Source of the DNA: Octopus vulgaris
Lineage: Eukaryota
Assembly: GCA_951406725.2 (NCBI GenBank)
Contig: OX597827.1
Coordinates: 1,426,001-1,490,000 of the forward strand
Length of the DNA stretch: 64,000 bases
Direction: 5' to 3'
Below are positions 3,886 to 29,274 of this stretch, in pieces. The notes under the pieces were generated by a model. The model made no database searches and had not been told where the DNA came from. It saw nothing but the letters and a program-made list of their open reading frames with translations. Position 1 is the first letter of the stretch; each line of letters opens with the position of its first letter. The position numbers and the translations under genes are program-made.

Positions 3886-4271
3886 ATTCCAACATAACCA
3901 GAATCGACATTACCTGAAGCGTATTTGTAAAAAAATTTCATTAGAAGGATCTACCTTCGCTGTCCACGAACTGCAGACAACTGATAAACAAGAGAGACAA
4001 AGATGCCTCTGAGTTGTAATAAAAAGTACCGGTTGTGGAAGATATCAATCACATCATCAGCAGCCGCCGCCCCGAACTGTGTACAGGATACGAACAACCT
4101 TTGAGATATGATATCCTTGCTAAACTATTTTCAATGCTTTGTTAAAGCCTTACCATTATCGAAGACATAAGGGGTAGATTAGTGTGTGGCCTGCTGTTTT
4201 ATGCTCGGAATAAATAATATTTTGCAATAATAATTCTCTAAACGAGGTATATACAGTAACTGCTCCATAAC

Positions 4272-4525
4272 ATAAGGGACGTTAGCCATCCGAATATGGC
4301 TAGGGACAGGGCAGGGCGGTGGGGGTGTTACTGATGCATTTAGCCCCAGGCGATCATCAACGTCACCAGAAGGGCTGACGCCATCACGGCGTCCTCTCGC
4401 CTGCAAAGGGAGATCATTCCCCGAAGAAGCGGATGCCACATACGGACCCAGGTTTCAAGGTGTTTGCCTCTCGTCAACGTATGGTAGGCACCGCCCCTCG
4501 ACGAACGACTCTCTGTGCAGGCTAT
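4272..4525 (-). mobile_element. GC-rich self-complementary retrozyme-like element carrying a hammerhead
   Basis: ~250-nt GC-rich island in AT-rich DNA; hairpins 4283-4302 and 4377-4393, long-range pairs 4347-4353/4397-4403 and 4314-4321/4489-4496; contains a type I hammerhead. Confidence 0.6.
4429..4494 (-). ncRNA. Type I hammerhead ribozyme (C3U variant)
   Basis: Minus strand: GCGGTGCC-TAC-CATACG-TTGACGA-GAGG-CAAACA-CCTT-GAAA-CCTGGG-TC^CGTATG-T-GGCATCCGC. Perfect 6-bp helix I plus distal helix, helix II with a CAAACA loop, near-palindromic helix III, GUC cleavage triplet. Confidence 0.88.
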
Positions 4526-5199
4526 CTATATAAAGATTTTCACAATTTTGTTTCATTGAAATATAAGTATAGATTCAAGAAATATTAAGCAAAAGAGGGC
4601 GAAACAATACTGAAATAAGAGAGACGAATGAATATAGGTTTTTAGCTGTTTTTATTTGTATTTACAAAATTATATACAGCAGATGGCGGACAGGAAATTT
4701 TGACAATTAAACAATGTCTGTGTATACTAAATTTTTTGTGAGTTTAACATTTTCGTAATTGAGATGCCTTTGAGATCTTCGTGGACACGTTCTTCATTAT
4801 GACAAACTGTCCAATAATGAAATTAACCTTAAAGGGGCTGTAAGGAAACAATCATTCAACTACTTTGTGATATGACCGAATAGAGGAAACTGAAGGTGAC
4901 CGAGTCTATGAGAGTCGTTTAGCTTAGTTGAATATTGTGTGAAAGGTCGAAGCAAAAAACTGTAATAGATAGATGCGTGTCATTTCTTAATGTCTTAACA
5001 ACCGTGCCTTTCATGACTCACAGAAATACACACACATAAATGTGTGCGTGTCTATAAATTTACACAAAAACCTAGAACTACTCATGAGTTGGGCGGTGTA
5101 TTGGATTAAAACTCAAGGTAAAAGCAGTATTAGAACGCTATCACTGCATTGCTGTTTATCTTCGTGAAATTACACGTTCTTCGGAAGAGACCGAAGTAA

Positions 5200-8593: not shown

Positions 8594-9205
8594 GGCGGCG
8601 AGGAGCTGGCAGAAACGTTAGCACGCCGGGCGAAATGCGAAGCCGTACTTCGTCTGCCGTTACGTTGTGAGTTCAAATTCCGCCGAGGTCGACTTTGCCA
8701 TTCATCCTTTCGGGGTCAATTAAATAAGTACCAGTCACGCACTGGGGTCGATATAATCGACTTAATCCGTTTATCTGTCCTTGTCCGTCCTCTCTGTGTT
8801 TAGCCCCTTGTGGGTAGTAAAGAAATAGGTATTTCGTCTGCTGCTATGTTCTGAGTTCAAATTCCGCCAAGGTCGACTTTGCCTTCCATCCTTTCAGGGT
8901 CGATAAATTAAGTACCAGTTACGCACTGGGGTCGATATTATCGACTTAATCCGTTTGTCTATCCTTGTTCGTCTCCTCTGTGTTTAGCCCCTTGTGGGCA
9001 ATAAATAAATAAGAATCGTTAGCATACCATGCAAAATGTTTCACGGCATCTCGTCCGTCTCTACGTTCTGAGTTCAAATTCCGCCGAGGTCGACTTTGCC
9101 TTCAGGATCGATAAAGTAAGAACCAGTTGAGCACTGGGTTTCGAGGTGATCGACTTCGACCTCACCCAAAATTGCTGGCCTTGTGCCAAAATTTGAAACC
9201 AATAT
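8594..9205 (+). mobile_element. SINE family B, multimeric copy
   Basis: Head at 8594 followed by three tandem units containing GAGTTCAAATTCCGCC..GTCGACTTTGCC. Confidence 0.88.
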
Positions 9206-12400: not shown

Positions 12401-13095
12401 CATCATCATCATCATGGCAATCCCTCAAGGTCGAGGATGATGGTCTTCGCGCAAATTTACTGGTGAGTCCGTAGGTGACCGATAAGACCAATTCTTGCTT
12501 GAAAAGATCGGTCGCAGTGCGGACATCTAGTGCCGGAAGGGAGAGTCGCGCGTGGTTGTTGTTGGCGCTCCTTCCGTCGTCGTCTTTTCTCCTCCAGCTC
12601 TCCAGACCTTTTCGACTCGAGAGTCGCTGTTCCCTCATGGATGGTGGTTTTCCAGAGTGGTCTGTCTTTTGCCGTTTCCTCCCAGTTAGTGAAGTCGATG
12701 TCACACCTTTTGAGGTTCGTTTCCAGAGAGTCCTTGTAGCGTTTCTTCTGGCCTCCTTTTGTACGCTTGCCGTCTTTGAGTTGGGAGTAGAAGATCTGTT
12801 TGGGAAGTCGTTCATCAGTCATTCTAACCACGTGGCCGCTCCATTTTAGTTGGCCTTTGATGACATAGGCTTCGATGCTGGTCATTTTTGCTTCTTGTAG
12901 CACGCTGACGTTAGTTCTTCTGTCTTCCCAGCTGATGTTGAGGATCTTCCGAAGACAGCATTGGTGAAATTTCTTGAGCGTTTTCAGGTGGTGACTATAC
13001 GGGGTCCAGGTTTCGGATGCGTAAAGGAGGGTTGGAATAATGACCCTGTACACCATGAGTTTGGTTTCAGTTCGGATGTCCTGATCAGCAAAAAC
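12401..13095 (-). mobile_element. RTE-clade LINE 3' end (post-RT region plus C2H2 finger), frame nearly intact
   Basis: VFADQDIRTETKLMVYRVIIPTLLYASETW...LKWSGHVVRM...RLPKQIFYSQL...CPHCDRSFQARIGLIGHLRTH*; short 3' UTR hairpin and (ATG)n tail at 12401-12416. Confidence 0.92.
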
Positions 13096-13096
13096 T

Positions 13097-13215
13097 ATTG
13101 TGAGATCCCGAGACCAGCAAGATGTGTTGCTCACCAGAGCCGCCACTGGAGCAGATGAGTGCTGGACAGATCATCGCCTCATCACCTCCACCATGAAAAT
13201 CAAACTCCGACCAAA
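13097..13215 (+). mobile_element. Inverted RTE AP-endonuclease C-terminal fragment
   Basis: IVRSRDQQDVLLTRAATGADECWTDHRLITSTMKIKLRPK, containing the APE (S/T)DH motif, abuts the RTE 3' part in opposite orientation. Confidence 0.85.
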
Positions 13216-25028: not shown

Positions 25029-26055
25029 CAAGGCTATTTGTCTGAGGGCGTTAAGCACTTGCTATGTGCTGCTGTGTTCCTGTCAGTTTATGTAGCTCTG
25101 CAGACACTCTGTTTACGAATTCTCATCTTTGGTCTTTCATCTGAAGTTTTATACAGTCTTGCCGACAAATAACATCCTCAAAGAGAACTTCCCCACACTT
25201 TTCCGCTGTGTGATCTTTCTAAGGTCGAGCCTCAAACCATTTGGAAAAGTTATCCATTGCAACAACAGTAACCATAATCTGTTTTCGGCAAACTGATGCT
25301 ATCGACACCAGTTTGGACCATCACTTCGTTTGGCACCGGAACAGGATGAAACGCACCAGCATTAATTTTGTGAACAGGGTTCGCTTTATGACACCGATCA
25401 CAAGAGAAAACGAACTCTTTCGTGTCTTTGGCCACATTTTTCCGATAAAACATCTCAAAAATTTCAACCCTTGTTCTATCGACACCAAGATGACTTCCTA
25501 AGCAGTGGGCAGGGTCACAATCTCCACAAACCATGTGAATATTTGAAATAATACTCTTCTGTTCATCCGGACTCCCAATGAACAAGACTTCTCGGTATTC
25601 ATTTTCAGAATTTCTTACTCTCTCTGCTCTGTGGCGACCACTCCGAGCAACATAATGCTTAGAAAGCCTACGTAGGTTTGCCTTTTTCGTTTTTGAACAT
25701 AGGACGTCCATATTTGTTGTTAACAACTTAATCAAGTATCAAATCAATGTTGTTAGCTTTGTCTTCTGTTCTGAAAGTAGCCATTCTGGATATGCTTCTT
25801 TCAAATTTCTTCTGCTTTTAGTAACTAAGCGAAAACTCCAACTAAATGAAAGTTCCGACTTTCTCTTTGATTTGCAAATGTACATTACGCACACACGCAC
25901 ACATAATAAACATCAACACACATTTAATGGGTTCACCCATTATCTCCCTATTTGCTATTACGGTGACGAACATTTGAGGAAGGATTTGGGGTGGGGGCAA
26001 TCTGAAATCGTAGAGGGTAATCTGAATGGGAGGTAATCTGAAATCGATATACCCG

Positions 26056-27862: not shown

Positions 27863-29274
27863 TCTTTATTCTTTTATTATTTTACTTTTTTCAACAGTCA
27901 TTTGAACAACTCGAGCCCAGGACGTATTCTTTGTAAGCCTGGTACTTATTCTATCGGTCTCTTTTGCCGAACTGCTAAGTTACGGGGACATAAATACACC
28001 AGCATCGGTTGTCAAGCGATGGCGGGGCGACAAACACAGACACACAACTACACACACACACACACAGATATGCAGGAAGTAAATAGATACCTTTAATTTT
28101 CAAAATCTTTTATTTAATACGCAAAGCGAACAATTGAAATGTTATCGATAGGTAGGACTCCATACTTTAGTATTTAGTTGACATTCCTTTTGCAGTTTTT
28201 GATTCAGAAACTCTTTTTTGGCATTGAACTGATGAGCTTTATGATTGTCTATTATGAAATATCTGCCCACTTTTCACGCAACAATCAAAACAACTCATTT
28301 TTAGATATAGGTTTCTGTCCAGTTTTTCGTATAGTCTATCTAGTATGCTCCAAAGATTTTCAATTAGGTTCTTGTCAGGAGATTGGCTCGGCCAAGGAAG
28401 CTTTTTGTTTCCACTTCAGTCAGCCATTGTTGATTCATTTTCTCTGTGCGGCATGGAGCCCTATCTTCCACGAATAAAAATTCATTTTTCGTTATGTTAT
28501 CGTGTGAATACATCGGAAGTAATCTTTGCTCAAGTATTTCGATGTATTTTTCAGAGTTTATGGTTCCAACACATTCCATCAGCTCAGAACAACCATTGCT
28601 GGTGACAGCTCCCTATACCGTTACAGAGATACTGCCATGTTTCACAAGCGGTTGGAGTTGTTTCAAGTCAAATTCTTGACTGGGAAGCCTTCAGACCCAA
28701 ACACGTCAAATGTCTGAAAATAATGCAAATCTGGATTCATCTGAGGAAATCACTCTATCCCAAAATGAACTGGATTTTTCTGACATCTCCTTAGCCCATT
28801 TCTTTCTTTTCATGATATTAATTGGTTGAAGGAGAGGCTTTCTTCCAGCTACTCGTCCATAAGACCCAAGCTTTTGCAGGTATGTAACACACATTCTTGG
28901 ACTAACTTCTAGCTGTTTTGCAATATCAGAAGCCTTCAAACGGGGTTCGTTTTCCACAATTCTCTTCAAACAGCGAAGCTTCCTTTCCGTGGGTCCAGGT
29001 CGGCCGGAACGAGAATCTGTTGATTCTTTTCCTTGACTTTTGAATTGCACTATAATTCTATTAACAGTAGCAAGAGGAATTTGAAGATTTTCGGCAAATT
29101 TTAGTTGCCTAAATTTTACACCTCTGAAAACATATTAAGACGCTTAGATAAGAAATTTTGAAAATTAAAGGTGTCTATTTACTTCCTGCATGTGTGTAAG
29201 TGTGTGTATGTATGTATGTATGTATGTATGTATGTATGTATGTATGTATGTATGTATGTATGTATGTATGCATG

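Follow-up and report, generated by a model that had tools for sequence, protein, structure and literature searches.

Results

Hammerhead motif in the window

The stretch of DNA analyzed here (the window; 64,000 nt of Octopus vulgaris contig OX597827.1, positions 1,426,001 to 1,490,000) is rich in microsatellites and carries, on its minus strand at 4429-4494, a type I hammerhead motif with an extended helix I and a TAC/T bulge, recognized by direct reading, covariation, and Rfam alignment. On the minus strand, the distal helix pairs GCGGTGCC (4494-4487) with GGCATCCGC (4437-4429), the bulge TAC (4486-4484) faces a single T (4438), and the 6-bp helix I is formed by CATACG (4483-4478) and CGTATG (4444-4439). 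Core positions 3 to 9 read TTGACGA (4471-4477), with U3 (4477) opposite G8 (4472) in a wobble that replaces the Watson-Crick C3-G8 pair; helix II (GAGG/CCTT) and loop 2 (CAAACA) occupy 4457-4470, with a G10.1•U11.1 wobble at the helix base, and GAAA lies at 4456-4453. Helix III (4446-4453) has 2 bp and a 4-nt tetraloop in a monomer, or is a predicted 8-bp intermolecular duplex with a tandem U•G. The C17 of the GUC triplet lies at 4445, which puts the predicted cut, on its 3' side, between 4445 and 4444. U4, G5, A6, A9, G12, A13, A14, A15.1-U16.1, and H17 are all present, and three helices surround the core with helix I open-ended, as a type I hammerhead requires. This confirms a real type I hammerhead motif, and the helices, core, loop, and GUC site described by the first-pass annotation were all recovered on direct rereading. 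Its description of helix III as palindromic and nearly loopless held in part: the element is self-complementary, but it has 2 bp and a 4-nt loop and is an imperfect palindrome, since it pairs with itself only through two U•G wobbles. As the C3-G8 pair is absent, the ribozyme is predicted to cut slowly.

In the alignment to Rfam Hammerhead_1 (RF00163), which had been proposed as a check, 4439-4483 (minus strand) matched over the full model (45 of 45 positions) with 21.8 bits, below the gathering score of 34 bits (E = 0.0022 for a 121-nt stretch chosen afterwards). Rfam scans of the 64 kb and of 1.1 kb (gathering score; E up to 10 on the 1.1 kb) reported no hammerhead; a relative with a canonical core was likewise missed, which makes these null results uninformative. 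A relaxed hammerhead descriptor gave one match in the window and had matches in 6 of 200 dinucleotide shuffles. The 66-nt motif alone shows modest predicted folding (z = -1.61), and the 121 nt at 4400-4520 (minus strand) form a long predicted rod with the hammerhead at its tip (z = -4.55; 1 of 200 shuffles as stable).

For host gene context, a Pfam search of 108 window frames (106 of 210 filtered, plus 2) returned only transposon fragments and a subthreshold PHD match. Elsewhere in the window lie an integrase zinc-binding domain (25253-25738), a piece of a Tc1-like transposase (28709-29134), a frame that by eye, with no Pfam match, resembles the end of a LINE reverse transcriptase protein (12460-13170), and another short repeat of about 184 bp (2500-2769 and 8645-9011, in tandem at the latter).

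A dispersed 358-bp repeat

The motif lies in a solo, 5'-truncated copy of a repeat (4224-4544, minus strand; 321 of 358 bp), delimited by repeat matches and placed at the tip of a young subfamily with a mean divergence of 1.7%. The copy has a single private substitution in its 321 bp, outside the ribozyme. Searches covered 2.8 Gb in 227 contigs and yielded 120 matches to 4224-4544 in 40 scored of 1,630 candidates, bearing out the earlier claim of a repeat family: it is dispersed genome-wide. At other loci, units follow each other head to tail with a 358-bp period and a type I hammerhead in each; the arrays are short and dispersed, with 1 to 7 ribozymes per array in the loci examined. The window copy, a solo monomer with one ribozyme, could not release unit-length RNA by itself. 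The unit has a GC content of 48.6%, and its predicted circle is 68% paired (z = -4.27; 0 of 60 shuffles as extreme). Two scanned frames over the unit gave no Pfam match and no tRNA was found at three loci of the repeat, which is, to judge from its sequence, non-coding. It has about a thousand copies in the genome, and enzymes of Penelope-type retrotransposons likely spread it in RNA form.

The window copy is flanked by a likely target-site duplication of 5 to 6 bp, ATTTT with the next G ambiguous (4219-4223 and 4545-4549, plus strand); the call is weak because the duplication is short and AT-rich. None of seven loci joined the left-flank repeat to the right flank as an empty site would. That left-flank sequence (4034-4138) is an old, diverged interspersed repeat with 40 matches at 65 to 78% besides the self match. 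Four public runs, listed under as many organism codes, also had contigs with the 358-bp repeat, in G8 and A8 forms; these data speak to presence only.

Three further loci showed unusual arrangements. At L004 (1133 to 946), a joint at a depth of about 813 was seen only in run X1, whose RNA status is a guess; it may represent a 188-nt unit without the ribozyme or a dominant diverged subfamily with an unaligned ribozyme part, and signature matching did not identify which. At L113, U•G and U-A subfamilies adjoin in one locus, probably because one inserted at the (TA)n flank of the other. At L227, four units that are 99.6% identical, each a truncated retrozyme with a LINE-like reverse transcriptase fragment, form a tandem array of 1.38 kb.

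Variation of the core 3-8 pair

The closest relatives of the window copy (47 ungapped copies in the 30 closest loci) all have U3, with A8 as its partner in 25 and G8 in 22; 45 have U11.1, and four other copies equal the 66 nt of the window exactly. The helix III sequence CCCGGG occurs in none of the 47, and the CCTAGG-type A occurs in 20. The first-pass annotation had taken C3>T, CCTC>CCTT, and CCCGGG>CCTGGG as decay from a canonical family consensus; these copies contradict all three changes, and the helix III loop came from CCTAGG instead.

A first genome-wide pattern with a fixed loop 2 gave 381 matches, only two of them C-G, a count biased by the loop requirement. The tail of the repeat (see below) led elsewhere: among 40 sampled of 972 tail loci were young, fully canonical subfamilies with other loops. 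A free-loop pattern then gave 951 exact matches, with a 3-8 pair of U-A in 409, U•G in 405, C-G in 106, and other combinations in 31 (at least 25 of them C·A); these counts are lower bounds, and the copies are nonindependent, some being local duplications. The proposition that C-G is absent from the family was dropped on this recount. The textbook C-G pair is nonetheless missing from the window copy and from about 9 in 10 of the copies counted. The young canonical subfamilies (C3-G8/G10.1-C11.1) are about 80% identical to the window copy and are its cousins, not its consensus.

A sister family (family B) is older and collinear, with the same tail and an internal divergence of 12.9%. Its core pair is C-G in 77 of 83 matches, C·A in 4, and U•G in 2. 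Such a pattern, with C3>U in 2 of 83, is what decay gives, which argues that the numbers in the family of the window copy (family A) did not arise by decay; U3 is an inherited trait of the source elements. At the helix II base, family B copies (L120-L149; 2,879 first-look candidates) carry a C·A pair.

History of the core

For the trees, the core and helices II and III were excluded, and rooting was on family B-like copies, a root that rests on an age gradient; for the topology tests, 35 rows were used after 7 of 42 loci without a full segment had been dropped. The tree is ladder-shaped: C-G copies are followed by U-A and U•G grades, then by a U-A group enclosing a C·A plus C-G clade (support 100/99), then by U-A copies with U·U at the base of helix II, and finally by U•G copies with the window copy at the tip. 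A single clade for all C-G copies was rejected (p-AU = 1e-7), and a single origin of the young U•G copies was not (p = 0.09). C3-G8, found at the base of the rooted trees, would be ancestral, as would C11.1. The earlier expectation of a probably canonical consensus fails for the subfamily of the window copy and holds further back, given this basal position and the canonical cousins among the 951 matches. The simplest path suggested by the trees leads from C-G to U•G/U-A, on to C·A, and back to C-G, with each state amplified and ten other core positions fixed.

Conservation and predicted mode of cleavage

Those ten core positions are invariant in nine subfamily groups. Outside the ribozyme, invariance extends to 71 of 174 positions, or to 82 of 174 when family B is set aside; within the six youngest groups alone, the contrast between core and outside is not significant (p about 0.09). 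Where loop 2 would dock on the helix I bulge, both U residues of the bulge are invariant in the nine groups as well, but loop 2 varies widely. The pair at the foot of helix II differs between subfamilies (G•U, U·U, or G-C). In 72 distinct copies, 93% of the hammerhead pair cells hold (helix I 97.5% and helix II 88.5% paired), and 67 two-sided pair changes were counted versus a shuffle mean of 24, most of them in the distal helix and in a number inflated by relatedness. Helix covariation between paralogues, whose absence the first-pass annotation had listed as part of a refutation, was found.

Helix III is self-complementary in five sequences, namely ACTATAGT, ACTGCAGT, ACCGGT, and ACCTAGGT, and ACTCGAGT in family B. 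For the window sequence, which pairs through the tandem U•G, predicted energies are -9.8 kcal/mol for the duplex versus +2.9 kcal/mol for the hairpin, in line with the earlier suggestion of a dimeric helix III. The lowest-energy fold of the monomer lies 5.3 kcal/mol below the active fold and has core bases paired with helix III; the consensus folds in the same way. The recurrent self-complementarity and the predicted misfolding of the monomer favor dimer cleavage, and we consider it probable from these secondary-structure models that the RNA would be cleaved as a dimer, with helix III formed between two units. Published data count against this reading: invertebrate hammerheads with a 2-bp helix III are described as often cleaving as monomers (PMC7229834), and eight of nine Xenopus retrozyme dimers are given as showing no cleavage in vitro, with one active (bioRxiv 2026.07.22.740005). 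A published scan of a type III hammerhead is reported to have found low activity for every single or double change around the 3-8 pair other than the G:C swap (PMC9901934), so that the U•G ribozyme may be nearly dead.

Insertion anatomy

Insertions were compared at 50 nonoverlapping loci of the lineage at least 79% identical to the window copy; seven overlapping loci, three diverged loci, and the 70% lineage were left out. Thirty-five loci are inverted, with two arms pointing outward (head to head), and in 28 of these one arm ends near unit position u322 and the other near u278, which defines a 44-nt tail on one side only. This 3' tail, missing from the inverted arm and common to the whole superfamily, corresponds to 4224-4266 (minus strand) in the window and has 972 exact pattern matches genome-wide. 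Of 77 ends of this kind, 62 adjoin a (TA)n tract. The window copy departs from the pattern: it is not inverted, and its site is not (TA)n. The cleavage site is crossed by 78 of 90 arms; 57 of the 90 exceed one unit in length, and in none does the start fall within 4 nt of the cut. The template was thus RNA left uncut or joined again. Divergence within loci did not separate circular from linear templates (31 loci): it was no greater than that between loci in 12 of 31, with 6 shared and 49 unshared private variants.

These marks, as read from the genomic copies, match the signature published for Penelope-like elements in 10.1101/2021.04.23.441226, where partial tandems with an inverted truncated copy and a one-sided tail of 30 to 40 bp are described, the (TA)n target bias is linked to the Cys linker, and clades without a hammerhead are said to spread well.

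Penelope-like elements in the genome

Intact 781-aa frames with a reverse transcriptase (RT), a CxxxxCxxC linker, plus a GIY-YIG domain at the C terminus, are abundant in this genome; an intact class of autonomous Penelope-like partner is thus present. In 61 Penelope-like loci, a small sample of the genome's families, there was no pseudo-LTR or 3'-end homology to the retrozyme other than two separate or chimeric retrozyme insertions. GIY-YIG loci and a second Penelope family likewise revealed no shared pseudo-LTR, and none was found in seven widely spaced ribozyme pairs or arrays, which are separate insertions or local duplications. In the loci tested, family A copies had no Penelope-like open reading frame attached. 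Since no autonomous element with a homologous pseudo-LTR appeared in the 61 loci, the partner is assumed.

Several other hammerhead-like motifs came to light. Two autonomous Penelope-like families (L071 4088-5172 with L048, L050, L051, L054, L059, and L065; and L167-L181) have U3-A8 motifs with a short palindromic helix III near their 3' ends, and one of the two has intact 781-aa frames and a 385-bp pseudo-LTR. A further U3-A8 motif lies at L059 1-200 in a rod resembling a different small repeat. U3 seems to be common among the hammerheads of this genome. Minimal-type motifs with a canonical core and a long helix II, found at L052, L074, and L077, probably belong to other Penelope-like families. 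At L139 (885-1737), a chimera lies between two (TA)n tracts, in which a 414-bp internal Penelope RT fragment is fused 5' of a family B array; this single case fits a template switch.

Discussion

Our results suggest, with a probability of roughly 0.78, that the repeat is a non-LTR retrozyme that self-cleaves slowly, probably as a dimer, and is copied by a Neptune-type Penelope-like enzyme with RT and GIY-YIG domains. Tandem source loci would be transcribed, and the hammerheads of the transcript would cut, with helix III forming between two units; the monomers would be ligated into circles. With the tail as its starting point, some 220 nt downstream of the cut, target-primed reverse transcription would pass through rejoined or uncut sites, which would account for arms exceeding one unit; second-strand priming 44 nt upstream would leave the inverted, tailless arm. 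We speculate further that retrozyme lineages may tune their own ribozyme down by holding U•G, U-A, or C·A at the 3-8 pair, keeping the 10.1-11.1 pair weak, and confining helix III to dimers, such that multimers are cut and monomer circles stay closed for rolling Penelope reverse transcription, the 3-8 pair having walked a full single-step cycle with every intermediate at the root of an amplified subfamily; this remains a tentative proposal that we hold to be rather less probable than its opposite. If it is true, the family amounts to a mutational scan that nature has run on a catalytic core, with transposition as the selecting force.

Among the alternatives, the one that survives best, although it is unlikely, is a non-autonomous Penelope-like element whose U3 lineages have lost cleavage by the ribozyme. 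Uncut linear multimers would then supply the template, with the motif retained for its fold or for protein binding. The low activity of core mutants in PMC9901934 would be in keeping with this, as would the 78 of 90 arms that cross intact sites with none beginning at the cut, the success of the hammerhead-free clades described in 10.1101/2021.04.23.441226, and the amplification of both U•G and C·A states. A dead ribozyme is harder to reconcile with catalytic and cleavage-site residues that are invariant while 53 to 59% of outside positions change, with a position 3 that is always a pyrimidine and a position 8 that is always a purine (in the 381-match partition), with a young lineage that regained the canonical C3-G8, and with helix III palindromes that have been rewritten several times.

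Still less likely is an origin of the repeat as a pseudo-LTR that became detached from an autonomous Penelope-like element not found here. Xenopus retrozymes are described as homologous to pseudo-LTRs (bioRxiv 2026.07.22.740005), and both autonomous families examined in the octopus genome bear U3-A8 hammerhead-like motifs near their 3' ends; against such an origin, the 61 Penelope-like loci showed no similarity, the family A copies tested had no Penelope-like open reading frame joined to them, the seven widely spaced pairs or arrays resolved into separate insertions or local duplications, and the head-to-tail 358-bp periodicity is kept across a long ladder of subfamilies. The original proposal, that the window holds a decayed copy of a family with a canonical, fast hammerhead consensus, has very little probability left and is refuted for the window subfamily, because, for all the canonical cousins (106 of 951 matches, and 77 of 83 in family B) and the ancestral C3 and C11.1 of the rooted tree, U3 is shared by all 47 nearest copies, four of them identical over 66 nt, the window copy has one private change, and the cousins sit on another branch, a single C-G clade being rejected.

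The family bears on two questions about animal retrozymes, which its natural sequences make testable. The enzymes that move them have been proposed to be Penelope-like from co-occurrence and pseudo-LTR homology, to which insertion anatomy and one RT chimera are added here. The second question, raised in the discussion of PMC7229834, is what keeps circles from cutting themselves when their hammerhead is unblocked; according to that paper, something besides self-pairing must block the ribozyme in a circle. Here, subfamilies that are near-isogenic vary at the 3-8 pair, at the base of helix II, and in the palindrome of helix III, so that cleavage rate can be set against copy number and age. For motif searches, a strict CUGANGA descriptor would overlook nearly half of the motifs (the A8 forms), and one requiring C3 about 9 in 10.

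Comparison with known systems

The metazoan non-LTR retrozymes defined by Cervera and de la Peña (2020; PMC7229834), with circles reported in coral, mussel, and axolotl and mobilization by Penelope-like elements proposed, are the closest counterpart. The octopus repeat shares their features, namely a tandem unit in the 150- to 450-bp range (mussel repeats are given as 350 to 390 bp) with a hammerhead in each, no coding capacity, no tRNA head, a GC content below 50%, and a self-paired predicted circle, and it likewise co-occurs with Penelope-like elements. Unlike the retrozymes as that paper describes them, it has short dispersed arrays, inverted arms, a fixed 44-nt tail, (TA)n targets, and mostly noncanonical 3-8 cores. 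Partial tandems, an inverted 5'-truncated copy, a one-sided tail, microsatellite targeting, and a hammerhead near the 3' end recall Neptune-type Penelope-like elements and their non-autonomous derivatives (PMC8557442; bioRxiv 2026.07.22.740005), from which the repeat differs in having no open reading frame and a tail of 44 nt versus the 30 to 40 described. The Xenopus retrozymes in bioRxiv 2026.07.22.740005 are linked to pseudo-LTRs, and no mollusc appears among the animals sampled in the main text of that preprint; unlike many of these retrozymes, the octopus repeat has no homology to the pseudo-LTRs examined here. Its hammerhead departs from the minimal Penelope form in its canonical helix sizes and loop 1 bulge. 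It resembles RF00163 (S. mansoni and newt satellite type) in its 6-bp helix I, 4-bp helix II, 6-nt loop 2, and very short helix III, and differs from that consensus in U3, the G•U at 10.1-11.1, and one base of loop 2.

Natural U3-A8 cores are on record (PMC3088659; S. mansoni Penelope elements, PMC4209133), as is U10.1·U11.1 (PMC3088659; axolotl HHR_Amex2, PMC7229834), and both occur in the octopus family. A saltern ribozyme is cited with a U3/G8 variant, but it has a 2-nt core insertion (PMC7151607). In the literature consulted on hammerheads, retrozymes, and cephalopod Penelope elements, neither the family nor amplified U•G or C·A cores are described, and the supplements of PMC4209133, PMC7229834, PMC3088659, and bioRxiv 2026.07.22.740005 could list such variants. 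Unlike the known core variants, U3•G8 (405 matches) and C3·A8 (a young clade) occur here in amplified subfamilies, and four Y3/R8 states stand on one tree. The class of element is therefore a known one, and what is new is the variation of its catalytic core and the anatomy of its insertions.
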